UHGV virus genome: UHGV-0130218
DNA from: a virus
Reading direction: 5' to 3' (one strand)
Length of the DNA: 19,889 bases
Made by a program: the position numbers and the translations under genes
Shown: piece by piece, positions 2,846-19,636 of the stretch
Numbering within the stretch: the stretch's first letter is position 1
How the letters are laid out: each line of letters starts with the position of its first letter
Notes under the pieces: model-generated
Databases searched by the model: none
Told to the model about the DNA's origin: nothing
Seen by the model: only the letters and a program-made list of their open reading frames with translations

Positions 2846-3769
2846 TTGGATATATTTTCATTTTATGAATCTTTCGATAAAAACTATATATTTAATAAAA
2901 TAGATGGATTGGAGCGGTTAGAGCTTAAAACAAAGCAGGTTCTAAAGGAATTTCTTTATTCATTCTATCTGAATGGTGGGCAAGGAATACCAAGAGGATT
3001 GTCAATCAGTGCATACTTGGCAGAGTTACTAATGTATGATTTCGATAATCAAGTGAAAGATAACCACTCTGTTTTTTATTATGCTAGGTATGTAGATGAT
3101 ATAGTTATTGTCACTAGTGGTTACGAAGATAGTGATGCTTTTATTGAGAATGTAAAATCAAACCTTCCAAATGGATTGCGTTTTAATGAAGGGAAGAAAT
3201 ATTATATTAGCGATTTAATTCCAAAATCTTCCAAAAAAACAAACCGTGCACCCTCCAAAAAATTGTTATCCTTTGAATATTTAGGGTACGATTTTAGCGT
3301 GGGAGATAAAATTGAAGAGTGCAATATAAGAGGATTCTATAGGGTAATTGAAATTGATCTTGCACATGCAAAGGCTAATAAAGTAAAAAGTAGAGTGATT
3401 TATTCGATTGTTGATTTTAATAAAACCAATGATTTTGAGTTGCTATGTGAAAGACTAAAATTCCTGTCCACAAACTTTAGTGTTTTAGATTCAGATAGAG
3501 TATTAAAACGGTTGTCGGGCATTCATTTTAATTATCCTCTTATTGATGCTAAATCTTCTAAGCGCCTTGCTGAACTTGATGTGTTTTTAAGAAAGGCTGT
3601 ATTATCATCTAGTGGTAAGGTTTTCTTTGATTTTCATGCGAACTTAAACCAATGCAAAAAATATCGATTACTTAAGATTAGTTTTGTTAGAGGCCATGAG
3701 AAACGTCATTTTTTTCATTATTCAGCTTCAAAAATGATGAAAATTCAAAGGTGTTGGAAATATGTCTAA
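2846..3769 (+). CDS. Reverse transcriptase, palm/thumb segment (the frame is open from 2729, so it is likely continuous with 2506-2754 after a +1 shift)
   Basis: RT motif A YRLDIFSFYESFDKNYIF, motif B QGIPRGLSISAYLAELLMYDFD, motif C YYARYVDDIVIV, motif D/E LRFNEGKKYYIS. No ATG or GTG precedes these motifs in this frame; the ORF track uses TTG at 2846. AT-rich. Confidence 0.8.
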   Translation: MDIFSFYESFDKNYIFNKIDGLERLELKTKQVLKEFLYSFYLNGGQGIPRGLSISAYLAELLMYDFDNQVKDNHSVFYYARYVDDIVIVTSGYEDSDAFIENVKSNLPNGLRFNEGKKYYISDLIPKSSKKTNRAPSKKLLSFEYLGYDFSVGDKIEECNIRGFYRVIEIDLAHAKANKVKSRVIYSIVDFNKTNDFELLCERLKFLSTNFSVLDSDRVLKRLSGIHFNYPLIDAKSSKRLAELDVFLRKAVLSSSGKVFFDFHANLNQCKKYRLLKISFVRGHEKRHFFHYSASKMMKIQRCWKYV

Positions 3770-5714
3770 AAAAAAGGAAGTAAGAGTTAATAAAAAAGAT
3801 TTTAATAGGGTTTTAGTTACTGAAACCATACCCTATGAAACGCCTATAATAGTGTCCAATGATGGTTTTTATAACAATGTAGTTAAATATACAACGGCCA
3901 ATGATACTGCTAAGGTATTGATTCAAAGAATAATTCTAGGGGAAAAGAAGAAAGGTAGGTATACGATTCCCTATGTTTTTAAAATTAATAAAAATGAGAC
4001 GGAGTTTCGACGTTTAGCCTTTCCACACCCCATATCTCAGATTGAAATGCGGGATTTTTATCTCCATTTTAATCAAATGATGATCAATTTTTGTTCCCGT
4101 AGTGATTTTTCTATTCGGCGACCGGTGAAGGTTGCAAGTACATATTATTATAAGAACTTATTGGAAGACAAGAATTTATATAAGAGAGGGCCTGTTGATA
4201 CCGACAAAAATGAACTATTAACTCGGCATGCTTCTTCATATTTTGGCTATCACGGATATGATCGCCTGTATAAGTTCTTTATGTCTAATGAGTTTATTGA
4301 CCTTGAGCGTAAATATAATACGCTATATACATTAGATGTTTCAAAATGTTTCGACAGTATCTATACTCATTCAATTTCTTGGGCTGCAAAAACCAAGACT
4401 TTCATTAAAGGGATGTTAGCTAATAAATCATTAAACTTTGGTGATGCTTTTGATAAATTAATGCAACGTTGCAACTTTAACGAAACCCATGGTGTAATTA
4501 TCGGTCCAGAAATTAGTCGAATATTCGCTGAGGTTATATTTCAAAAAATAGATTTAAATGTTCAGTTTAAATTAAATAATATCGAGCCATCGATACGTAA
4601 GGGTATCGATTATGATATTCGCCGTTATGTTGATGATGTTTTTATTTTTGCTAAAAATGAAACTAATGCCGAAATTATATATAAGATTTACACTGATAAA
4701 CTGAATGAATATAACATGCATATAAATTTGGGTAAAGTAACAAAAAACACTCGACCTTTTATCACAGCAAAAACGCAAATTATACATCACGTCAATCAAA
4801 GAATGAATTTATTTATTGAATCTTTTCTTGGTTATGATGATGAAATGAAATTAATCGCAAAGCCAATATATAACAATAGGAAGTTAGCTAACAAATTTAT
4901 AGATGAGGTGAAAATAATATGTGCTGAAAATAATGCGGGATATGGTGAGGTTGCTTCTTATATTGTGTCGGCGATTTTTGAAAGAATTAAAAGATTAACT
5001 TCTTCAGTTAATCAAGTCGAAGATAAAGATATATACAATGCAATGTATGTTTTGCTCCATATTTCATTGTTCTTTTTCAGAGTTGCTCCGTCTGTTAGTT
5101 CATCATATAAATTGGCTTCAATACTTATCGTGGCTCTCAGATATTTTAAGGCTAAAGTACCATCATACAGTGAGCTTATAGCATCATATGTTTATTTTGA
5201 AATTGAAGACTTTCTTAAATCTGCTAATACTAGCAAAGTAGCCATAGATAATCTAATTAGTCTTGAGGCATATAATATTATGTATGTTATAGGTGAGCTA
5301 GATCAAGAACGATATTTATCAAAACAGTTGATTGAGAACATTTTTAGTGAAGTTGATTCTTATTTTGATATAGTGTCCTGTCTATATATCGTAAAGGATA
5401 AGAAAGTTTATAATACACTTAAAAATAAAATTATTGATATTATTAACTCCAAGTTAATGTCAAGTGATAGTATTTTGGATTATAGTGAAAAGGCAATGCT
5501 CTTTTTGGATGTTATGTCTTGCCCTTATATTGATTTAAAATGGAAAAAAATATGGTTGAAATCAACTTTAAAAGAATTGCAAGAAGCTACTCCTAACAAT
5601 GAAAAAATAGATAGTTTTATCAGTTATTCTGTAGCGAATCCTTGGTTTGTGGACTGGAGTAATGTCGATCTTTTGAATTTCTTAGAAAAAAAACAATTGA
5701 AAAAAGCCTATTGA
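3762..5714 (+). CDS. Reverse transcriptase with long alpha-helical C-terminal extension (UG/Abi-type, defence-associated RT-like)
   Basis: 650 aa. Motif A YTLDVSKCFDSIYTHSI, motif B HGVIIGPEISRIFAEVIF, motif C RRYVDDVFIFAKN, followed by ~300 aa of predicted helical sequence. Its ATG overlaps the upstream RT stop by 8 nt, indicating translational coupling. AT-rich. Confidence 0.85.
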   Translation: MSKKKEVRVNKKDFNRVLVTETIPYETPIIVSNDGFYNNVVKYTTANDTAKVLIQRIILGEKKKGRYTIPYVFKINKNETEFRRLAFPHPISQIEMRDFYLHFNQMMINFCSRSDFSIRRPVKVASTYYYKNLLEDKNLYKRGPVDTDKNELLTRHASSYFGYHGYDRLYKFFMSNEFIDLERKYNTLYTLDVSKCFDSIYTHSISWAAKTKTFIKGMLANKSLNFGDAFDKLMQRCNFNETHGVIIGPEISRIFAEVIFQKIDLNVQFKLNNIEPSIRKGIDYDIRRYVDDVFIFAKNETNAEIIYKIYTDKLNEYNMHINLGKVTKNTRPFITAKTQIIHHVNQRMNLFIESFLGYDDEMKLIAKPIYNNRKLANKFIDEVKIICAENNAGYGEVASYIVSAIFERIKRLTSSVNQVEDKDIYNAMYVLLHISLFFFRVAPSVSSSYKLASILIVALRYFKAKVPSYSELIASYVYFEIEDFLKSANTSKVAIDNLISLEAYNIMYVIGELDQERYLSKQLIENIFSEVDSYFDIVSCLYIVKDKKVYNTLKNKIIDIINSKLMSSDSILDYSEKAMLFLDVMSCPYIDLKWKKIWLKSTLKELQEATPNNEKIDSFISYSVANPWFVDWSNVDLLNFLEKKQLKKAY

Positions 5715-5880
5715 ATTGCTAATTTGTTGTTGAAGCAACCAATATGCCCTACACGATTTTTCGATATACTAGGGCTGATTACGGTAGGTAAGTTGCATGT
5801 AACCTGGCCTACCTTATGACGCTCAAGAGCAGAAATGCACACACTAAGGGATGAGGTTGCTTCAACCCCTTTTATTTTCT
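5715..5880 (+). ncRNA. Candidate structured non-coding RNA downstream of the RT operon
   Basis: 5729-5740 GTTGAAGCAACC and 5855-5866 GGTTGCTTCAAC are perfect reverse complements (12 bp), enclosing ~115 nt with internal stems such as 5784-5789 GGTAGG / 5808-5813 CCTACC. A T-rich tail follows. No ORF. Confidence 0.35.
5848..5880 (+). terminator. Putative intrinsic terminator for the RT operon
   Basis: Stem GGTTG-CTT-CAACC at 5855-5867 followed by CCTTTTATTTTCT. The int stop codon (5862-5864 on the minus strand) lies in the loop. Confidence 0.4.
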
Positions 5881-7058
5881 ACAAAATTCCCCCACCACAG
5901 CATCAGCTCTACTCTTTGTTGCAAATAGACAGAGCGGTTGTATGCTCTTCGTACCTCATTCTTATCAGAATGAGCTAGTGCTGCTTCAATGACGTCTGGA
6001 TTAAATCCTTCTTCATTAAGCGTCGTGCTAGCTATCGAGCGTAAGCCATGAGCAACTAGCTTCCCATTCCAGCCAACTCTTTTTAGTGCAGCATTAGCCG
6101 TCTGGCTATTCATAGCTTTCTTAGGGTCATTTCTACTTGGAAAAACATGATCACGGTGCTTACTGATGGGTGCCATGATCTCAAGAATATAAAGCGCCTG
6201 AGGAGATAGAGGAATTAAATGTTCACGCTTCGCTTTCATCCTTTCGGCGGGGATTGTCCAGAGTTTTGAGTCGAGATCGATCTCTTCCCACCTGGTACCG
6301 GAGGCTTCAGAAGGGCGTACAAGGGTTAGGAGTTGCCACTCAATTAGACAGCGAGTAGGAACAGACAGATTTGACATAACCAAAGAACGCATCAGACTTG
6401 GTAATTCTTCTGGTCTAAGCGTAGGCATATTTTGCTTTTTAGGCCTCTCAAAAGCCATTCCAACTCCTGAGGTTGGGTTTGCGTCAATCAAGCCGGTATT
6501 TACCGCGTAAATCATAATCTCATTAATACGCTGTACCAGACGACGAACAGTCTCCAGAGCACCACGCGCTTTGATTGGCTCTAATGCTTCAACAATTGTT
6601 CTGGCCTTAATCTCCTGAACAGGTATCGTGCCTATTGCAGGGAAAACGTCCTTGTCTAAAGATCGCCAAATATCTTTTGCATAGTCTTCGGTGACGCTTT
6701 TGCTCTTCATTTTGAACCAGTTGGTGGCCACAGTTGAGAAAATGCTATCCAGCTCTATCTGACGCTTTTCTGATGCATGCTCTTGTTGCTGTTGTGGATC
6801 CATATCTAGCGCGAGCATGGTTAAGTGCTGGTCGCGTATCTGACGAGCTGCTGCGAGTGTAAAGGCAGGGTATGAGCCGAGACTCAAATTTGTGCGGCTG
6901 CTGCTTCCCGGTCGTTGATAACGGAAGCGCCAGAGTTTTTTGCCGGAGGTTTTTACGAGTAAGAACAGGCCATCACCATCATGCAGGGTGAAGTCTTTTT
7001 CGCGGGGTTTTGCTTTGAGGATTTCGTTGTTAGTGAGGGGGCGTGTAATGCGCGCCAT
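5862..7058 (-). CDS. int: P4-type tyrosine integrase
   Basis: 398 aa. N-terminus LTNNEILKAKPREKDFTLHDGDGLFLLVKTSGKKLWRFRYQRPG is typical of P4-family integrase arm-binding domains. The C-terminal catalytic region has HGLRS...LAHSDKNEVRRAYNRSVYL (R, H-x-x-R, Y). RBS aggga upstream. It is adjacent to a tmRNA 3' fragment, as with CP4-57 intA. Confidence 0.9.
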   Translation of the reverse strand: MARITRPLTNNEILKAKPREKDFTLHDGDGLFLLVKTSGKKLWRFRYQRPGSSSRTNLSLGSYPAFTLAAARQIRDQHLTMLALDMDPQQQQEHASEKRQIELDSIFSTVATNWFKMKSKSVTEDYAKDIWRSLDKDVFPAIGTIPVQEIKARTIVEALEPIKARGALETVRRLVQRINEIMIYAVNTGLIDANPTSGVGMAFERPKKQNMPTLRPEELPSLMRSLVMSNLSVPTRCLIEWQLLTLVRPSEASGTRWEEIDLDSKLWTIPAERMKAKREHLIPLSPQALYILEIMAPISKHRDHVFPSRNDPKKAMNSQTANAALKRVGWNGKLVAHGLRSIASTTLNEEGFNPDVIEAALAHSDKNEVRRAYNRSVYLQQRVELMLWWGNFVENKRG

Positions 7059-7311: not shown

Positions 7312-8172
7312 TCAAATAAATTTGTTTTTCCATGTCTCGTATCTTTTACGTATCCTTTGAAGTAGTAATGCCGTCCAGCTAAGGCCGTGAGAGAATGTTA
7401 GATTAAAAGTTGCTTCCACTGTATCTCCACGTATTGAGAATCTATTTATCCGATATTCAGTAGAAAAAAACTCTTTTTTTGTTGTTCCAGAGATTTCTTC
7501 ATATTCAATTAATAAAACAGGCCCATCTATTTGAGTTAACATATTTTCATGGAGGCTGATTTTATCCAAGAGGTAGTTAGATAATAGTGTCGGTATTAAT
7601 GTGGGGATGTGAAGATTTACCTCTTCTTTGTTAACGCTCCAAGGGAGAATATAAACAACATCAGAATATTGTTCTTCATGAGAATACCATTTGGATTGAC
7701 CAAAACCTAATAATGAAATGTAAGTGTGACCTTGTTTGTCTAATTGATAACAGTATTCATTAGCCATCATGGCTGCTTTGTAACCTTTGGTGTCAAAGGT
7801 ATGTTCATCGTCTAGTTTTTTTATTTTATTTAACAAAAAATGTTTTTCGTAATTGAATATCCATTGGTATTTGAATTTCAACGCTGGGCCTAGACCAACA
7901 TTTAATATTGGCAGGGTGGGATTGTTGTTTTTTGATATAGCATCAAAAACACCTTTGTTTACTATTTTTGTTTTATCAATTTTTATTTTTACATCTTTAG
8001 TGATTATCTGTACTTTGTTTGATAACTTTCTTTGGATAACAGTTTGCCTTATAGCTAAATAAGCAGCAATTGCTGATAAAGCACTTGCTGTCAAACCACC
8101 ATATCCGAGCCATGCGGGGTCTGCCATATCGAAGTATTCCTGCCTTATAACAAGGCAGGAATTATTTCTCAA
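7312..8172 (-). CDS. Hypothetical membrane-anchored protein; AT-rich moron between the lambdoid int and the att core
   Basis: 286-codon ORF with a TTG start; a more likely ATG start at 8127 gives MADPAWLGYGGLTASALSAIAAYLAI, a predicted N-terminal transmembrane helix. The ~240-aa soluble domain has no motif I recognise. Strongly AT-rich compared with the neighbouring int. Confidence 0.6.
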   Translation of the reverse strand: MRNNSCLVIRQEYFDMADPAWLGYGGLTASALSAIAAYLAIRQTVIQRKLSNKVQIITKDVKIKIDKTKIVNKGVFDAISKNNNPTLPILNVGLGPALKFKYQWIFNYEKHFLLNKIKKLDDEHTFDTKGYKAAMMANEYCYQLDKQGHTYISLLGFGQSKWYSHEEQYSDVVYILPWSVNKEEVNLHIPTLIPTLLSNYLLDKISLHENMLTQIDGPVLLIEYEEISGTTKKEFFSTEYRINRFSIRGDTVEATFNLTFSHGLSWTALLLQRIRKRYETWKNKFI

Positions 8173-9344
8173 TTCTTCACATTGTTCAAGGATGTGATCG
8201 ATGAGTTGTTATCATAATCTTTCAAATAGCGTCCGTAATGACGAAAGAGCATCTCAGGTCCTTTGTGGCCCATCTGCGCAGCCAGCCAAAATAAGTTTAC
8301 ACCGCAGCTTATCATACGTGTGGCGAATGTATGCCTTGTCTGATAAGGATTACGGTACCTGATACCGGCTTTCCGGAGCGTAGGAACCCAGGCTTTTTTC
8401 CTAATGGCGTCCGCGCTGGCCCATGGCTTGTTTGTCTTCGGATCTTCAAAGACACAACCATTCTTCATGAAGCTAAAGGGCTTTTGTTCGTTTAGAGCAA
8501 TCATCGCTTCCTCGGTTAACTCAACCTTGCGTGTTCCTGCCTTCGTTTTCGTACCTTTCGTCACGCCAGAGACGCTGGCGCTCTGTACATGAGCCGTCTT
8601 CTCAACGAAGTCAATGTCCCTCCAGCGTAGTGCGCAAAGTTCCGAACTGCGTAGACCTGTCTGAAGCGCAAATCTGAATAAGTTCTCCCATTGCTTATTA
8701 CCCGCTGATTTTAACAGCGCGCTTACCTCTGCTGGAGATAGTGGATCAACAATATAAGTACTTTCCTCGTCACTTTTTTTGCTTTGATATCGTGAAGCTG
8801 TTACCTGTGACACTGGATTAATTTGTAAAACACCATCAGTTACAGCTTCATCAAGTGAGGAACGAAGAAACGACAACTGGTTACGTATCGTCTTCAATGT
8901 TGTTTTCTGATTCTGAATCCATGTTTTTAATGCTGCTGGCGTTAACTCACTGGCCGGGAAAATGTGAAGTTCAGACAGTGCGCTACGGCATTTTTTATAC
9001 CCGCCAATGGTGGAGGGGGAAAGATTCCTCGTTTCGCAAATCTTCAGGTACTCATCAAGATACATTTTCACTGTTTTCCCGGTCGCAGCATTACCGAAAA
9101 TTTTTAACCTCACCGAACGAGGGAAATATTCAGCATAGATAAATGTTCCACGCTCGATTTTGTTGTGGATTTCGCCGAGCATACGCTCGGCATATTTAAG
9201 GTTTTTGTTGTTCACTTCTAGATTTGAAAGGGGTTCTCTGCATTTCACCCCCTTGTATGTGAACGTAATATTGATGGTTTCACCACTGCTGTGCTTCCTG
9301 ATGGTTACACCACGTGGGAGTTTAGGCGATTCTTTCGTGCCCAT
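8169..9344 (-). CDS. int: Phage tyrosine integrase (lambdoid type)
   Basis: 391 aa. C-terminal catalytic region RNPYQTRHTFATRMISCGVNLFWLAAQMGHKGPEMLFRHYGRYL (R...H-x-x-R...Y). Its start overlaps the xis-like ORF. Confidence 0.9.
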   Translation of the reverse strand: MGTKESPKLPRGVTIRKHSSGETINITFTYKGVKCREPLSNLEVNNKNLKYAERMLGEIHNKIERGTFIYAEYFPRSVRLKIFGNAATGKTVKMYLDEYLKICETRNLSPSTIGGYKKCRSALSELHIFPASELTPAALKTWIQNQKTTLKTIRNQLSFLRSSLDEAVTDGVLQINPVSQVTASRYQSKKSDEESTYIVDPLSPAEVSALLKSAGNKQWENLFRFALQTGLRSSELCALRWRDIDFVEKTAHVQSASVSGVTKGTKTKAGTRKVELTEEAMIALNEQKPFSFMKNGCVFEDPKTNKPWASADAIRKKAWVPTLRKAGIRYRNPYQTRHTFATRMISCGVNLFWLAAQMGHKGPEMLFRHYGRYLKDYDNNSSITSLNNVKN

Positions 9345-13371: not shown

Positions 13372-14031
13372 TTAAATATTCTGGGTTATCTGAACAACTT
13401 TACCGACAATCCGGCAATTTCCATCTATCGGTATAGGTTTGAAGGCAGGATTAAGCGGCATCAGATACGCGAAAGGGCTATCCCAGACGAGTTTTTTCAC
13501 TGTTGCTTCAGCAGAGCCATCAAGTATCGCCACGACTATTTTCCCGTAAAGGTCATCCAGTTGGCCATAGTGTGGTTCAACTATTACGATCGACCCTTCG
13601 GGTATGGATGGTAGACCATGTGGGTTAGTCATCGATTCCCCACGAACAACCAGGCCGAATACTTCATCAGAAACGTTTGCAGTGGTTTGCGTCCATGAAA
13701 TCACATCAGAAAGCCTTGAGCATGCGTAAGTATCAGTCCACGTCCCTGCCTGGACAGCAGAGATAATTGGAACTGCCTTAGGGGGCTTGAGAAAGGGGAT
13801 CACTTTGGTGTCATCCTGCGCTTCATCTCCTTTCCCGTAGAGAATCCATTCAGGCGTGGTTTGCAACGCCATCGCCAGCTGATGGAGGTTCTCACCATCA
13901 GGCTTCGTGTTACCGCTCTCCCATTTAGTAACGGACACGCGGCTAACACCTAGGCGTTTAGCTAGGGTCTGCTGCGTTATATCGAGCTGGACTCGACGGG
14001 ATCTTATTCGGTCTTTCATCTCTGTTTTCAT
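13372..14031 (-). CDS. cI: CI-type phage repressor (HTH plus S24 LexA-like peptidase domain)
   Basis: 219 aa. N-terminal HTH QQTLAKRLGVSRVSVTKWESG. C-terminal GESM (Ser nucleophile) and ATVKKL (Lys) motifs. Divergent from the cro-like gene. Confidence 0.85.
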   Translation of the reverse strand: MKTEMKDRIRSRRVQLDITQQTLAKRLGVSRVSVTKWESGNTKPDGENLHQLAMALQTTPEWILYGKGDEAQDDTKVIPFLKPPKAVPIISAVQAGTWTDTYACSRLSDVISWTQTTANVSDEVFGLVVRGESMTNPHGLPSIPEGSIVIVEPHYGQLDDLYGKIVVAILDGSAEATVKKLVWDSPFAYLMPLNPAFKPIPIDGNCRIVGKVVQITQNI

Positions 14032-15070: not shown

Positions 15071-15250
15071 ATGCGCGAAGTTAACCGAAGGTTCAAAGAC
15101 CACAGAGGGATCCCCGTTCGGGTTATCCGGTGGGAGCCAGAGACTCAACGAGTTATCTACCTGCGGGATGGTTATAACCACGAATGTTTCAGCCCGCTCG
15201 AACAATTTAAGCGCAAGTTTACAGAGTTAAAGGACGACCATGAGCACTAA
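15071..15250 (+). CDS. Small conserved phage protein (59 aa), below the ORF-track size cutoff
   Basis: ATG at 15071 with GAAGG upstream. Encodes MREVNRRFKDHRGIPVRVIRWEPETQRVIYLRDGYNHECFSPLEQFKRKFTELKDDHEH, a balanced protein-like composition. It overlaps the next gene start and lies fully inside the low-complexity 14850-15230 frame. Confidence 0.4.
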   Translation: MREVNRRFKDHRGIPVRVIRWEPETQRVIYLRDGYNHECFSPLEQFKRKFTELKDDHEH

Positions 15251-16103
15251 ATTAACGGGTTACGTTTGGGACGCTTGTGCCGCTTCTGGCATGAAGCTGT
15301 CCAGCGTTGCCATCATGGCGCGTCTGGCAGACTTCAGCAGTGATGAAGGGGTTAGCTGGCCTTCCATCGCTACCATTGCGCGCCAGATTGGTGCCGGTGA
15401 GAGCACGGTTCGCACAGCCATATCTCAACTGGAAAAAGACGGGTGGTTAACCCGTCAGCAGCGCCGTAAAGGCAACCGCAATGCATCGAACGTTTACCAG
15501 CTTAATGTTGCGAAATTACAGGCTGCTGCCTTTTCTCACCTGTCAGATTCTGACGCATCAAAATCTGATGCCTCAAAAACCGACGCGTCAAAATCTGAGG
15601 CATCAAAAAACGATGAAAAAGGCGGTTTTCACCCGTCAGAATCTGGGGGGGATCCGTCAGTAAATACAACTACTGATCCATCAGATAAAAAACATTCTTG
15701 TCCGGTTGCTGCGCAACCCGACCCTGTGGTGGTTATCACCGATCAGGCGAAGCAGGTTTTATCACATCTGAACAAGACCACTGGTTCACGGTATCAGGTC
15801 TGCAAATCGTCCTTGGAAAACATCCGGGCTCGCCTGGCTGACGGGTTTACGCCCGATGAGCTGCTGTTGGTGGTGGATTACAGCGTCGAGAAGTGGGGCG
15901 AGGATCTGAAAATGGCCGAATACCTGCGCCCAACAACGTTGTTTTTGCCATCTAAATTCCCAGGTTACCTGCAATCCGCAAATAAGTGGAACGCAGCAGG
16001 ACGCCCAGAACGACAGTACTGGGGCTCAATTCGTAAGCATGATCCGATGAAATTTGGTGGGCCAGATAAAGCCATCCCAGCTGGCTTCAGGGGAGCGAAA
16101 TGA
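15240..16103 (+). CDS. Replication initiator (lambda O-like; N-terminal winged-HTH, C-terminal phage replication-protein domain) with internal repeats
   Basis: 287 aa. N-terminal HTH-like segment VSWPSIATIARQIGAGESTVRTAISQLEKDGWL. Central (S/T)DASK pentapeptide repeats encoded by 15-bp tandem repeats. Position after cro/cII as for lambda O. Confidence 0.65.
   Translation: MSTKLTGYVWDACAASGMKLSSVAIMARLADFSSDEGVSWPSIATIARQIGAGESTVRTAISQLEKDGWLTRQQRRKGNRNASNVYQLNVAKLQAAAFSHLSDSDASKSDASKTDASKSEASKNDEKGGFHPSESGGDPSVNTTTDPSDKKHSCPVAAQPDPVVVITDQAKQVLSHLNKTTGSRYQVCKSSLENIRARLADGFTPDELLLVVDYSVEKWGEDLKMAEYLRPTTLFLPSKFPGYLQSANKWNAAGRPERQYWGSIRKHDPMKFGGPDKAIPAGFRGAK
15549..15608 (+). repeat. Four tandem 15-bp repeats inside the O-like gene; candidate origin iterons
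   Basis: tctgacgcatcaaaa / tctgatgcctcaaaa / accgacgcgtcaaaa / tctgaggcatcaaaa, in frame (coding SDASK-like repeats). Analogous to the lambda ori iterons, which lie within O. Confidence 0.5.
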
Positions 16104-16999
16104 TGAGCATGAATGCTGATAACAAATATTGCCGCGCGCTGGCTGAACTTCGCTCAAAGCCAGCGCATGAATTGAAAGAGGTTGGCGATCAGTGGCGCAC
16201 TCCGGATTTGTTGTTTTGGGGCATCAATTCGATATTTGGGCCGATGGTTCTGGATCTGTTTGCAGACGATAGCAATGCTAAATGCCCTGCATGGTATACC
16301 GCCGAAGATAACGCGCTGACGCAGGATTGGTCAGTGCGTCTGGCAGAACTCGGTGGCGCCGCGTTTGCAAATCCGCCTTATAGCCGTTCTCAGTACCATG
16401 AAAAGCAGGCCATCACTGGCATGACCCACATCATGAATCACACAATGGCGATGCGTGATAAAGGTGGTCGTTACATATACCTCGTGAAGTCAGCCACAAG
16501 TGAAACATGGTGGCCGGAGGATGCCGATCACATCATGTTTATTCGTGGTCGTATTGGGTTCGATCTTCCTGTTTGGTTTGTTCCCGCTGACGAGAAGCAG
16601 CAACCCACCAGCGCATTTTTTGCCGGGGCAATCGCTGTCTTTGACAAAACCTGGCGTGGTGAAAGCTTCAGCTATATCAATCGCACCGAACTGGAAGAAA
16701 AAGGGCGAGCAGCATTGTCATTGGCTCAATTCGCCGCGGCAAAAATGGCCCTTCCGTCCGTGCCGGAAAAAGCAATGCCTACTGCCATTGCAACGCCTGA
16801 TGCAGAGTCGCGCATCTGGCCGCTGGAGGTTGGTCTGGTATTCAATCAGCTCGAGGGGGCGGATTCTCTGGAGGTGAACCAACAGAACAAGTTGAAGGCC
16901 AACATCAACCAACTCTGGCTGGAGCGTGTGCCTACCAGCGAAATAATTAGCGTGGCTGGTGGTCTGATTAGCAGCATGCAGGGGGCCGTCAATGCGTGA
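16100..16999 (+). CDS. Phage N6-adenine DNA methyltransferase (Dam-type)
   Basis: 299 aa. N-terminal WRTPDLLFWGINSIFGPMVLDLFADDSNAKCPAWYT and catalytic motif FANPPYS. Overlaps the upstream gene by 4 nt and the downstream gene by 8 nt. Confidence 0.7.
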   Translation: MMSMNADNKYCRALAELRSKPAHELKEVGDQWRTPDLLFWGINSIFGPMVLDLFADDSNAKCPAWYTAEDNALTQDWSVRLAELGGAAFANPPYSRSQYHEKQAITGMTHIMNHTMAMRDKGGRYIYLVKSATSETWWPEDADHIMFIRGRIGFDLPVWFVPADEKQQPTSAFFAGAIAVFDKTWRGESFSYINRTELEEKGRAALSLAQFAAAKMALPSVPEKAMPTAIATPDAESRIWPLEVGLVFNQLEGADSLEVNQQNKLKANINQLWLERVPTSEIISVAGGLISSMQGAVNA

Positions 17000-18929
17000 A
17001 ATCATCGTTGATAACTTTGCCGGTGGTGGCGGCGCGAGTACCGGCATTGAACTGGCCATCGGGCGTAGCGTGGATATCGCTATCAACCACGACGAAAACG
17101 CTATTGCGATGCATAAGACGAATCACCCTGACACGCTGCATTATTGCGAGTCGGTGTTTGACGTTGACCCAAGCGCAGCCACCAGCGGTAAACCTGTCGG
17201 TCTGGCCTGGTTTAGCCCTGACTGCCGCCACTTTTCCAAAGCTAAGGGCGCTAAGCCGGTTAAGAAAGAGATTCGCGGGCTGGCGTGGATTGTTCTGCGC
17301 TGGGCGCTGGCAGTACGTCCCCGCGTCATGATGCTGGAGAACGTCGAAGAATTTAAGACATGGGGCCCGCTGCTGGATGAAGAATTACGCCCGGATCCTG
17401 AGCGTGCTGGTGAAACATTCGAGGCATTTGTCGGCATGCTGTCGACTGGTATCGCGGCGAATCACCCAGCACTGGCTGAGGTTTGCGAATTTCTTGCCAT
17501 TGAGCCGCACGGCCAGCAGGCGCAACAGCTGATCGCTGGGCTTGGCTATGAGGTCGATTATCGTGAGCTGCGCGCTTGTGATTACGGCGCGCCGACGATC
17601 AGAAAGCGTTTCTTCATGGTCATGCGCTGTGACGGCCGCAAGATTCATTGGCCTGAAGCGACTCATGGGGATCCAAAATCACTGGAAGTACAAAGCGGCA
17701 AGCTGGCGCCATGGCGTACCGCGGCGGAGTGCATTGACTGGAATATCCCGGCCCGGTCCATCTTCGACCGCAAAAAGCCGCTGGCGGAAAATACGCTCAA
17801 ACGTATCGCGCGCGGCATCCAGCGCTTTGTTATCGAAAGCGCATCGCCTTTCATCGTGAAGTGTAACCACACCACGACGAAAGGAGGTTATGACTGTTTC
17901 CGCGGGCAATCGTTGTTAGAGCCATTGCAGACCATCACTAAAAAGCATGGCTACGCGCTGGCGGTACCGCATCTTACTAAATTCCGCACCGGGGCCACCG
18001 GGCAGCCAGTGACCGAGCCGGTACCAACTGTCACCGCTGGTACGTCGGCTCGCCCGGGCGGTAATGGGCATGCGCTTGGCGTAGTTGAGGCCGCGCTGAC
18101 ACCGTTCCTGGCGGGCAATGGCGGCAGTGAGTACCAGGCAAAGCCGCGCCCGCTGGATAAACCCGCTCATACAATCCTCAAGCAGTCCCGCGCGTGTGTG
18201 GTTGCTCCTGTCATCGCCCGCCAGTTTGGTGCCAGTGTTGGGCACAGGGCAGACGAGCCTAGCGCAACGATTACTGCTGGCGGTGGCGGTAAATCGCAGC
18301 TGGTAACCCCAACACTGATCCAGATGGGATACGGCGAACGCCCAGGGCAAGAACCGCGTGTTCTTCAACTGAATAACCCGCTCGGCACGGTCACTGCTGG
18401 TGGTAATAAGTTTGCGGCGGTGAGCGCGTTCCTGGCGAAGCACTATGGTGGGAATTACTCGGGGCCGGGTGTTGGTATGGATGAGCCTGCCCACTCAGTC
18501 ACTACCGTTGATCATCACGCGGTAGTTGCGTCGCACCTGGTGAAGCTGCGCGGAACCTGCCGCGACGGTCAGACCATGGATACACCTATGCCGACGATTA
18601 CCGCTGGTGGCCAGCACGTTGGCGAGGTCCGGACATTCCTCGAAACCTACTGCGGTGAAAGCGAGGATGAATGGCTGGTGACGATCGAAGGAGTTAAGTA
18701 CCAGATCATCGATATCGGAATGCGCATGCTGCAACCGCATGAGCTTTATAAGGCGCAGGGCTTCCCTGACGGCTACGTTATCGATCAGGACTATCGCGGC
18801 AATCGTTACGCCAAAGACAAGCAGGTAGCGCGCTGCGGTAACGCAGTACCGCCGCCGTTCGCTCGTGCGCTGGTAGAGGCAAATCTTCCTGAATTATGTG
18901 CAAATCAAAAGGCGGGTGCAGCCGCCTGA
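16992..18929 (+). CDS. C5-cytosine DNA methyltransferase with an expanded repeat-containing variable region
   Basis: 645 aa. Motif I FAGGGG, motif IV region FSPDCRHFS, motif VI MLENV, C-terminal ARCGNAVPPPFA. The central region holds about seven ~36-aa modules, each with a P-x-x-T-(I/V)-T core. Confidence 0.85.
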   Translation: MREIIVDNFAGGGGASTGIELAIGRSVDIAINHDENAIAMHKTNHPDTLHYCESVFDVDPSAATSGKPVGLAWFSPDCRHFSKAKGAKPVKKEIRGLAWIVLRWALAVRPRVMMLENVEEFKTWGPLLDEELRPDPERAGETFEAFVGMLSTGIAANHPALAEVCEFLAIEPHGQQAQQLIAGLGYEVDYRELRACDYGAPTIRKRFFMVMRCDGRKIHWPEATHGDPKSLEVQSGKLAPWRTAAECIDWNIPARSIFDRKKPLAENTLKRIARGIQRFVIESASPFIVKCNHTTTKGGYDCFRGQSLLEPLQTITKKHGYALAVPHLTKFRTGATGQPVTEPVPTVTAGTSARPGGNGHALGVVEAALTPFLAGNGGSEYQAKPRPLDKPAHTILKQSRACVVAPVIARQFGASVGHRADEPSATITAGGGGKSQLVTPTLIQMGYGERPGQEPRVLQLNNPLGTVTAGGNKFAAVSAFLAKHYGGNYSGPGVGMDEPAHSVTTVDHHAVVASHLVKLRGTCRDGQTMDTPMPTITAGGQHVGEVRTFLETYCGESEDEWLVTIEGVKYQIIDIGMRMLQPHELYKAQGFPDGYVIDQDYRGNRYAKDKQVARCGNAVPPPFARALVEANLPELCANQKAGAAA

Positions 18930-18943
18930 TATGGAGAAATAGC

Positions 18944-19636
18944 ATGAATCAGTTAACCGCAAAGGGTGTTGTGACAATGTCCAGCCGTGAAATTGCCAAG
19001 CTGGTGCAGAGCAAACATGGTGATGTGAAGCGCTCAGCTGAGCGCCTTGCTTCTGCTGGTATTTTAACCGCGCCGTTGGCGCACACCCCCTACACACACC
19101 CGCAAAATGGGCAAACCTACGAGGAGTATTGGTTCAACAAACGTGATTCTCTGGTGATCGTCGCCAGGTTGTCGCCAGAATTTACCGCCGCTGTTGTCGA
19201 TCGCTGGCAAGAGCTGGAGAACAGCCAGGCCGTAAGTGTCCCGCAAACATTGCCGGAGGCATTACGTCTCGCCGCGGATCTGGCCGAGCAGAAAGAACAA
19301 CTCAGCCAGCAGTTAGCCGCTGCCGCGCCGAAAGTTGAGTTTGTCGATCGGTATTGTACTGCTAAAGGCTCAATGTCTTTCCGCCAGGTGGCAAAGCTGT
19401 TGCAGGCCAAAGAGACCGATTTCCGCTTGTTCCTCATTGAGAGCGGCATTTTGTACCGGCTCAGTGGAGTGCTGACACCGCGGCACCAGCACATTGCTGC
19501 CGGGCGGTTTGAAGTGAAAACTGGCACTACGAGCGAAACAAACTACGCCTTTAGCCAGGCACGTTTTACACCCAAAGGCATCGAGTGGATCGGCGGCCTG
19601 TGGACGGCACACATCGCTAAGGGGCATGCCGCGTGA
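18944..19636 (+). CDS. Phage antirepressor-like protein (Rha/Ant N-terminal plus KilA-C-like C-terminal domain)
   Basis: ATG at 18944 preceded by ggaga; the upstream TTG extension would overlap the methyltransferase gene. N-terminal SSREIAKLVQSKHGDVKRSAERL resembles Rha/Ant. C-terminal VDRYCTAKGSMSFRQVAKLL...FRLFLIESGILYR resembles the KilA-C/ANT domain. Confidence 0.65.
   Translation: MNQLTAKGVVTMSSREIAKLVQSKHGDVKRSAERLASAGILTAPLAHTPYTHPQNGQTYEEYWFNKRDSLVIVARLSPEFTAAVVDRWQELENSQAVSVPQTLPEALRLAADLAEQKEQLSQQLAAAAPKVEFVDRYCTAKGSMSFRQVAKLLQAKETDFRLFLIESGILYRLSGVLTPRHQHIAAGRFEVKTGTTSETNYAFSQARFTPKGIEWIGGLWTAHIAKGHAA

Follow-up and report, generated by a model that had tools for sequence, protein, structure and literature searches.

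Seven tandem modules and an Asp-Cys catalytic motif in a phage cytosine-5 DNA methyltransferase of a large, modular family

Introduction

So far, multispecific DNA methyltransferases have been a textbook curiosity, known from a small number of Bacillus phages whose enzymes have two to four recognition domains. We took the cytosine-5 (C5) methyltransferases of SPbeta/phi3T, SPR, rho11s and H2 from the phage records and aligned them; the variable region of these enzymes is made up of cassettes that contain a single x-x-T-[LIV]-[TS] motif apiece, three in SPR (SPTITT, SHTLSA and AFTVNT), two in phi3T/SPbeta (SPTLTT and AFTVNT) and four each in rho11s and H2. Work from the Trautner group reportedly mapped the individual specificities to individual cassettes and is said to have described inactive pseudo-domains in some of these enzymes, and target lists for the phi3T/SPbeta, rho11s and H2 enzymes are likewise said to be available. 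For the SPR enzyme a triple sequence specificity has been reported, as stated in the title of the paper concerned. Here we describe a C5 methyltransferase gene in the UHGV virus genome UHGV-0130218, a stretch of 19,889 nucleotides that we refer to as the window, and show that its product, the window protein, belongs to a very large family that takes the tandem-cassette design much further.

Like M.SPRI, M.Phi3TI/M.SPBetaI, M.Rho11sI and M.H2I, the window protein is a phage-borne orphan with one C5 core and with short tandem cassettes between motifs VIII and IX, and the cassette region is plastic in both groups. The Bacillus enzymes, however, have a canonical Pro-Cys dipeptide (GFPCPTFS, GSPCQSFS), two to four cassettes and a length of 439-503 amino acids (aa), whereas the window protein has Asp-Cys, seven modules (1-12 in its family) and 645 aa, and similarity outside the core motifs is weak. 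Specificities were reportedly mapped cassette by cassette in the Bacillus enzymes, whereas for the window protein a target for each module is a proposal. M.HhaI and M.HaeIII share the core fold and the motif order with the window protein but are about 330 aa long, have the canonical Pro-Cys, recognise one target and carry one element instead of seven, NEPAFTVQASG, upstream of motif IX, in M.HaeIII and IAITLSAYGGG in M.HhaI.

Results

A complete C5 core

The window protein is, judged by its family, its core motifs and its core fold, a DNA cytosine-5 methyltransferase, as had been proposed in a preliminary description of this DNA, and is presumably active. The Pfam family PF00145 (C-5 cytosine DNA methylase) matches the protein in three stretches with 73.9 bits (cut-off 22), while the narrower NCBIfam model TIGR00675 gives 52.5 bits, under its cut-off of 100.65. 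The core motifs I, IV (with the catalytic Cys), VI, VIII, IX and X are all present and in canonical order (Table 1), and motif IX, like motifs I, VI, VIII and X, is invariant in the family alignments; in the HMMER alignment, motif VIII corresponds to PTIRTRYF of 3g7u, a solved prophage methyltransferase. The AlphaFold2 model based on a 138-sequence alignment has a predicted local distance difference test score (pLDDT) above 90 for the greater part of aa 1-250 and 580-630, interrupted by some lower-scoring stretches, and from about aa 570 the score climbs above 75. The top Foldseek matches of the modelled core were 3g7u, DNMT1, MET1, HhaI and HaeIII, with E-values from 1e-9 to 6e-7.

Seven tandem modules between motifs VIII and IX

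There are seven copies of the motif P-x-x-[TS]-[IV]-[TL] between motifs VIII and IX, with their Pro at aa 311, 343, 391, 423, 463, 499 and 532, which places the modules where target-recognition domains sit. The motifs span aa 311-537 at a spacing of 32-48 aa (mean 36.8). In the preliminary description, about seven tandem modules of ~36 aa had been seen between the N-terminal catalytic motifs and ARCGNAVP; exactly the seven peptides quoted there were found, and their position can now be narrowed to the interval between motifs VIII and IX. The segment that had been delimited for them, 17907-18611, encodes aa 306-540, and FSPDCRHFS and ARCGNAVP fall outside it in the same open reading frame (ORF).

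In 20,000 shuffles of the protein the motif was found 0.07 times on average and three times at most. When a hidden Markov model (HMM) built from six modules was used to recover the seventh, five modules scored above all 2,000 shuffled sequences and the other two above all but one. The aligned modules have the consensus [DE]-x-P-x-x-T-[IV]-T, followed by a variable loop of 5-13 aa, a strand of the form a-x-V-x-x-x-L and then K/R-x-x-G. At the DNA level, identity of 69-78% is confined to a stretch of ~26 nucleotides (nt) encoding P-x-x-T-I-T-A-G-G, and Tandem Repeats Finder reported no module-length tandem array. As only this short stretch is still alike in the DNA, the repeats must be old, and a recent duplication of the modules, which we had considered, is ruled out.

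For the terminal module, of type F, and motif IX the family consensus reads PLHTxTTKDRFGLVTVxGxxYQIVDIGMRML. The loop of this module, P-x-H-T-x-T-T-K-D-R, stands directly upstream of motif IX and is retained by the Bacillus enzymes and most family members. In the window protein it is absent at aa 558-576 (18663-18719) while the strands are kept, and the loop has been lost across the enterobacterial clade. The close homologues P0017, P0043 and P0030 have instead a 17-aa insertion, HFAVDGYDEQRAQQALE, inside module B.

An hhalign alignment of the family profile with M.SPBetaI of SPbeta (probability 94.7, E = 6e-8) places module B on SPTLTTMGGGH...EVRAVL and module F on EPAFTVNTIDRHGV of the SPbeta enzyme, and module F together with motif IX on EPAFTVNTIDRHGVAIGEYPKYKIRKLSPLE; the motif of module 6 resembles EPAFTVNTIDRHGVAI of the same enzyme. 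In pairwise BLASTP, the similarity of the cassette region to that of the Bacillus enzymes was weak, with E-values of about 0.01. The likeness to multispecific phage methyltransferases that had been pointed out earlier is supported to the extent that modules B and F align to the two SPbeta cassettes and each Bacillus cassette contains one motif.

A large family with shuffled modules

An exhaustive HMMER search retrieved 2,589 family clusters at 50% identity (E <= 1e-30), with named members from Enterobacteriaceae, Burkholderia, Bordetella, Paenibacillus, Brevibacillus and others. The window protein also matches 347 phage genome records, among them Bacillus phage phi105 and Pseudomonas, Vibrio, Aeromonas, Ralstonia, Myxococcus, Gordonia and Mycobacterium phages. 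The phages and prophages that carry the family infect or reside in Proteobacteria, Firmicutes and Actinobacteria. In phi105 (KY197768.1) the member is unannotated (1465-2850, an open stretch of 462 codons), has SPDC and three modules and is 50% identical to the window protein. The window gene shares 97% DNA identity with the ‘DNA methyltransferase’ genes of two Escherichia phages, Flotzy and Eeyore, and a gene with 97% identity is present in 12 of 5,426 complete E. coli genomes. Escherichia phages account for three of the 112 phage matches to the catalytic half at E <= 1e-30.

Two candidates for relatedness were set aside or gave no match. M.BatI, from a B. anthracis prophage and with the target GCDGC, was rejected as a family member, having AGYPCQ and being short. 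P1 Dmt was considered for the adjacency of Dam and C5 genes, and no P1 record occurred among the 60 matches listed of the 112 phage matches.

According to the module HMM, the 388 relatives analysed have 1-12 modules per protein, most often seven or eight. Their 2,049 distinct modules cluster into about 12 types, every one of which has a distinctive loop behind T-x-T, and the window protein has the architecture D-G-K-H-E-A-B. Others in the family include DGKHEAAB, DGKHAB, DGKHEAJB, DCEAHBF, DCEHABF and DGECHABF besides DGKHEAB itself; the first module (mostly D) and the last ones (B, F) recur, and those in the middle vary in presence, copy number and order. The variation can be followed at short range: among homologues that share 85-96% identity with the window protein, single modules have been inserted or deleted exactly and in register. 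P0026 is without module K, P0036 and P0069 are without module E, P0002 and P0017 have an extra module J and P0043 an extra module A, the extra module (J or a second A) sitting directly after module 6. Such clean differences at this level of identity indicate that the protein tolerates the loss or gain of a single module.

Modules of the same type are 45-62% identical where the core is 57-67% identical, which argues that the modules are under selection and are not spacer. Moreover, each type retains its own loop sequence from Firmicutes to Proteobacteria.

Relatives with ‘relaxed’ specificity

Several members of the family have been assayed. Two prophage enzymes of Paracoccus aminophilus, JCM7686_0772 and JCM7686_2655, conferred partial protection in E. 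coli against 16 of the 28 restriction enzymes tested (PMC3925955). The partially protected enzymes were AluI (AGCT), BsuRI (GGCC), EcoRII (CCWGG), NciI (CCSGG), Bme1390I (CCNGG), HpaII and MspI (CCGG), Hin6I (GCGC), PauI (GCGCGC), TaiI (ACGT), XhoI (CTCGAG), PvuII, CaiI, BglI, EcoO109I and HpyF10VI, with CAGCTG among the sites, while CGCG, TCGCGA, GATC, GGNNCC, CCWWGG, CTAG, CATG, GANTC, CCGCTC, ACGCGT and CCATGG were unprotected (PMC3925955). Pyei1_p05 of a Paracoccus phage is about 69% identical to these two enzymes (PMC6536676), and relaxed specificity has also been reported for the Aeromonas phage proteins ARM81mr_p29 and ARM81ld_p31, the relaxed-specificity enzymes being said to modify cytosine in a CC motif (PMC5537653).

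Pyei1_p05 (673 aa, seven modules, 43% identity to the window protein), ARM81mr_p29 (565 aa, five modules, 46%) and ARM81ld_p31 (554 aa, five modules, 41%) all have SPDC and are homologous to the window protein over their full length, with E-values of 0 to 1e-156. For the P. aminophilus locus we used 43 Rhodobacterales homologues as a stand-in; the primer-encoded N-terminus of JCM7686_0772, MTYQPHLP, is the N-terminus of the family. The relaxed-specificity group thus shares with the window protein the family, SPDC, 5-7 modules, temperate phages as carriers and a position near replication genes, but differs from it in module sets and numbers. Tandem modules and the Asp-Cys motif go unmentioned in those published reports on the Paracoccus and Aeromonas enzymes that could be examined, and a search of the literature on the SPDC motif, phi105 and multispecific enzymes of Gram-negative phages yielded nothing on modules.

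In our judgement, no single degenerate motif explains the protection pattern of JCM7686_0772 and JCM7686_2655. With AGCT, ACGT, CTCGAG, GCGC and CCGG protected and CGCG, CCATGG and CCGCTC unprotected, several discrete specificities fit better than one loose specificity, a view that is ours and not the original authors' conclusion. Together with the gain and loss of single modules among near-identical homologues, the protection of many unrelated sites by tested relatives supports the earlier suggestion that the repeats are a duplicated target-recognition scaffold.

An Asp-Cys version of motif IV

In the HMMER alignment with 3g7u, SPDC of the window protein aligns ungapped to GPPC, indicating that Asp77 replaces the Pro of the Pro-Cys dipeptide and is not inserted between Pro and Cys; the residue directly before the catalytic Cys78 is therefore Asp and not Pro. 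Across the roughly 400 relatives that we inspected, SPDC is invariant or nearly so. It is present in all 120 of the closest database proteins, in nearly all of the best 150 representatives of the 50%-identity clusters and in 42 of the 43 Rhodobacterales homologues, which have 3-11 modules each, while SPEC, with Glu for Asp, is seen in actinophage proteins that are less closely related (gp67 of Gordonia phage Herod, gp54 of Mycobacterium phage Phayonce). The unusual P-D-C motif that had been noted earlier is thus present, as FSPDCRHFS at aa 74-82, but it is not peculiar to the window gene: as far as the aligned sequences tell, it is a hallmark of the whole family.

In eight relatives (P0131, P0186, P0197, P0208, P0214, P0222, P0255 and P0267) an intein of ~340-360 aa is inserted exactly between SPD and Cys (CFPAGT...VVHN|C). 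As the intein ends directly before the Cys of motif IV, the catalytic Cys of the methyltransferase is also the +1 nucleophile of the intein. Inteins usually occupy functionally essential sites.

A precedent for a disturbed Pro-Cys is Pmt1 of Schizosaccharomyces pombe, a small tRNA methyltransferase of the Dnmt2 family that has Pro-Ser-Cys and was long thought inactive on DNA. Pmt1, however, has no tandem modules, whereas Asp/Glu is the conserved hallmark of a large phage family with DNA-modifying members. Indeed, SPDC-bearing relatives block restriction enzymes sensitive to 5-methylcytosine (m5C), which means that the Asp-Cys family includes active DNA m5C methyltransferases, and the conserved Asp-Cys shows that the ‘invariant’ Pro-Cys dipeptide of C5 methyltransferases is not obligatory. 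The motif Asp/Glu-Cys-x-His might adapt the catalytic loop to interchangeable cassettes.

Genomic context

The window contains the early region of a lambdoid-type prophage (Table 1). The C5 methyltransferase gene lies in the early-right operon, after the replication gene and the Dam gene. It shares 8 nt with the upstream Dam gene at its start (16992-16999) and 34 nt with the downstream antirepressor gene at its end (18896-18929), which suggests translational coupling within one operon; the Dam gene is probably coupled to it through the stop/start overlap. Between 14000 and 19889 there is no endonuclease gene, so that the C5 methyltransferase is an orphan.

Table 1. Positions of the C5 methyltransferase gene, its motifs and modules, and other genes in the window
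Feature	Position	Strand	Amino acids	Evidence and remarks
Tyrosine integrase	5862-7058	-		
Tyrosine integrase	8169-9344	-		
CI-like repressor	13372-14031	-		
Replication gene	15240-16103			
Phage N6-adenine methyltransferase (Dam type)	16100-16999	+		PF05869 151.5 bits, TIGR01712 206.7 bits
C5 DNA methyltransferase gene	16992-18929	+	645 aa	ORF list
Motif I, FAGGGG (S-adenosylmethionine (AdoMet)-binding loop)	17016-17033	+	9-14	invariant in 61- and 138-sequence family alignments
Motif IV, FSPDCRHFS, catalytic Cys78	17211-17237	+	74-82	S75, P76, D77 and C78 invariant in 61- and 138-sequence alignments
Motif VI, ENV	17337-17345	+	116-118	invariant in 61- and 138-sequence alignments
Motif VIII, TIRKRFF, two Arg of R-x-R (RKR, aa 204-206)	17595-17615	+	202-208	R204 and R206 invariant
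Module 1, type D, EPLQTITKK	17892-17987	+	301-332	module HMM, clustering; D is the commonest first module in the family
Module 2, type G, EPVPTVTAGTSARPGGNGH, long loop	17988-18131	+	333-380	module HMM, clustering
Module 3, type K, KPAHTILKQSRAC	18132-18227	+	381-412	clustering; type almost confined to the enterobacterial clade
Module 4, type H, EPSATITAGGGGKS	18228-18347	+	413-452	module HMM, clustering
Module 5, type E, NPLGTVTAGGNKF	18348-18455	+	453-488	module HMM, clustering
Module 6, type A, EPAHSVTTVDHHAVVA	18456-18554	+	489-521	module HMM, clustering
Module 7, type B, TPMPTITAGGQHVGEVRTFL	18555-18662	+	522-557	module HMM, clustering
Remnant of terminal type-F module (strands WLVTIEGVKYQIIDIG), then motif IX MRMLQPHELYKAQGFPDGY	18663-18779	+	577-595 (motif IX)	
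Motif X, ARCGNAVPPP	18828-18857	+	613-622	G616, N617 and V619 invariant in family alignments
Rha/KilAC antirepressor	18896-19636			

The two integrases have different arm-binding domains and lie about 1 kb apart, and their presence suggests two elements integrated in tandem, an island with reverse transcriptase (RT) and toxin genes and a prophage. On the island side, an RVT_1 domain is found in two overlapping adjacent genes on the plus strand, 2846-3769 (307 aa) and 3762-5714 (650 aa), a pair that looks like a two-RT defence system (defence-associated reverse transcriptase, DRT, type). Upstream of the RT genes, an ORF on the minus strand (362-1207) has a C-terminal CdiA-CT RNase A toxin domain (PF18431, E = 4e-33).

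In phages Eeyore (7674-9008) and Flotzy, which are otherwise 97% identical, the product of the gene upstream of the C5 methyltransferase gene, where the window has the Dam gene, is annotated as a protein like 3'-phosphoadenosine-5'-phosphosulfate (PAPS) reductase, and the early-left operon has a ‘queuine tRNA-ribosyltransferase’ (DpdA-like) gene. The PAPS-reductase-like and DpdA-like genes hint at a second DNA-modification system, possibly of the 7-deazaguanine kind.

Discussion

The reading that we favour, by a cautious step rather than a firm one, is that the gene encodes an orphan anti-restriction C5 methyltransferase in which one catalytic core is served in turn by seven autonomous recognition cassettes. 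The core is one standard AdoMet-dependent C5 domain that comprises motifs I-VIII together with motif X; Cys78 is its nucleophile, and the Glu of ENV and both Arg of R-x-R are present. Each cassette of ~36 aa has its own P-x-x-T-[IV]-T element and a type-specific loop. At any time a single cassette would dock beside the catalytic site and turn its loop towards the major groove of the DNA, and alternation between cassettes would lead to the methylation of several unrelated short sequences. Expression of the gene would be off in the lysogen and begin with induction, as we propose from its place downstream of the CI/Cro switch and the replication gene and from the analogy with other phage methyltransferases in a review; progeny DNA would then be methylated in advance against many type II restriction systems of future hosts. 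The multispecificity of the window protein, its activity, a target of its own for each module and the timing of expression are what we infer in this reading.

Extended to the family, the same idea would make the ‘relaxed specificity’ of the tested members a combinatorial multispecificity, with ~12 module types that each have their own short target and are shuffled to match the restriction systems of the hosts. We put this forward tentatively, as a proposal with somewhat less than an even claim on belief.

A number of observations weigh against the cassette reading. The module HMM, run on the recognition regions of HhaI, HaeIII and SPbeta alone, did not score above shuffled controls, and a 35-position module profile run against the sequences of the PDB gave chance matches only (E >= 0.7); the basis for equating the modules with known target-recognition domains is the full-length profile alignment, the position and a short motif. 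The modules also received no confident structure, since in the AlphaFold2 models pLDDT is below 50 over aa 287-559 of the window protein and over aa 305-402 of the three-module relative P0262 (502 aa, 66-sequence alignment); such low values would be compatible with cassettes that are strung together flexibly and become ordered only when DNA is bound, without being evidence for this. The models thus speak neither for nor against a single standard target-recognition domain free of repeats, the finding that the preliminary description had named as a refutation. The evidence for methylation comes by analogy, from relatives below 50% identity (41-46%) or from close homologues of those relatives. 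Protection by JCM7686_0772 and JCM7686_2655 was partial only, and the authors read it as ‘relaxed substrate specificity’ of one enzyme (PMC3925955). A further relative, Phi2LM21_p23 of Sinorhizobium, was inactive in E. coli, and the replacement of Pro by Asp might lower enzyme activity.

The alternative that survives best, although we regard it as rather unlikely, is a single methyltransferase of truly degenerate specificity, in which recognition of the target falls solely to the module or modules adjoining motif IX and the others are structural or decayed pseudo-cassettes; the extra modules might form an extended DNA-binding arm or a spacer, with a loose fit giving low discrimination. It takes the experimenters' wording at face value, together with the partial protection at every affected site (PMC3925955) and the assignment of the modification to cytosine in a CC motif (PMC5537653), yet the protected sites AGCT, ACGT, CTCGAG, GCGC and CCGG have no common dinucleotide context and the CC- or GC-containing CCATGG, CCWWGG, CCGCTC, GGNNCC and CGCG are unprotected. 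The recurrence of the first and last module types, with variation confined to the middle, and the low confidence with which the module region was modelled would also suit degenerate specificity. Pseudo-domains are reportedly found in the Bacillus enzymes, and rho11s has MGEGHRE where H2 and SPbeta have MGGGHRE. However, type-specific loops kept across phyla and a module identity near that of the core would be unexpected for spacers or decaying pseudo-domains, and the loop that has been lost in the window protein is that of the terminal F module, the one adjoining motif IX.

Far less probable is the possibility that, with Asp in place of Pro, the protein does not carry out DNA C5 methylation at all, being inactive, acting on another substrate such as RNA or transferring a different group. 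The substitution does affect one of the most conserved positions of the superfamily, TIGR00675 falls short of its cut-off and one relative was inactive in E. coli, but relatives with SPDC block m5C-sensitive restriction enzymes in vivo, the remaining catalytic residues are all invariant, inteins target the catalytic Cys in eight relatives and the constancy of the motif over the sequences inspected speaks for selection and not decay. That chance or composition produced the repeat in a linker rich in Gly, Thr and Pro, for which one could cite the shortness of the DNA repeat and the missing tandem array, is refuted by the shuffling and leave-one-out results and by the occurrence of the same modules in hundreds of relatives.

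What was already known is that members of the family had been assayed and, from the Bacillus phages, the principle of tandem cassettes. In the literature examined we did not find a description of how numerous the cassettes are and how they are shuffled, with up to 12 per protein and about 12 types, or of the family-wide Asp/Glu-Cys motif.

Were each module to have its own target, a single small gene would counter many restriction systems simultaneously, with consequences for the host range of phages, for how prophages spread within the Enterobacteriaceae and for phage therapy. Variants that differ naturally by one module are ready-made material for assigning targets to modules. Should the combinatorial multispecificity prove true, the family would offer a readable table of cassettes against targets and a natural toolkit for methyltransferases with chosen targets.

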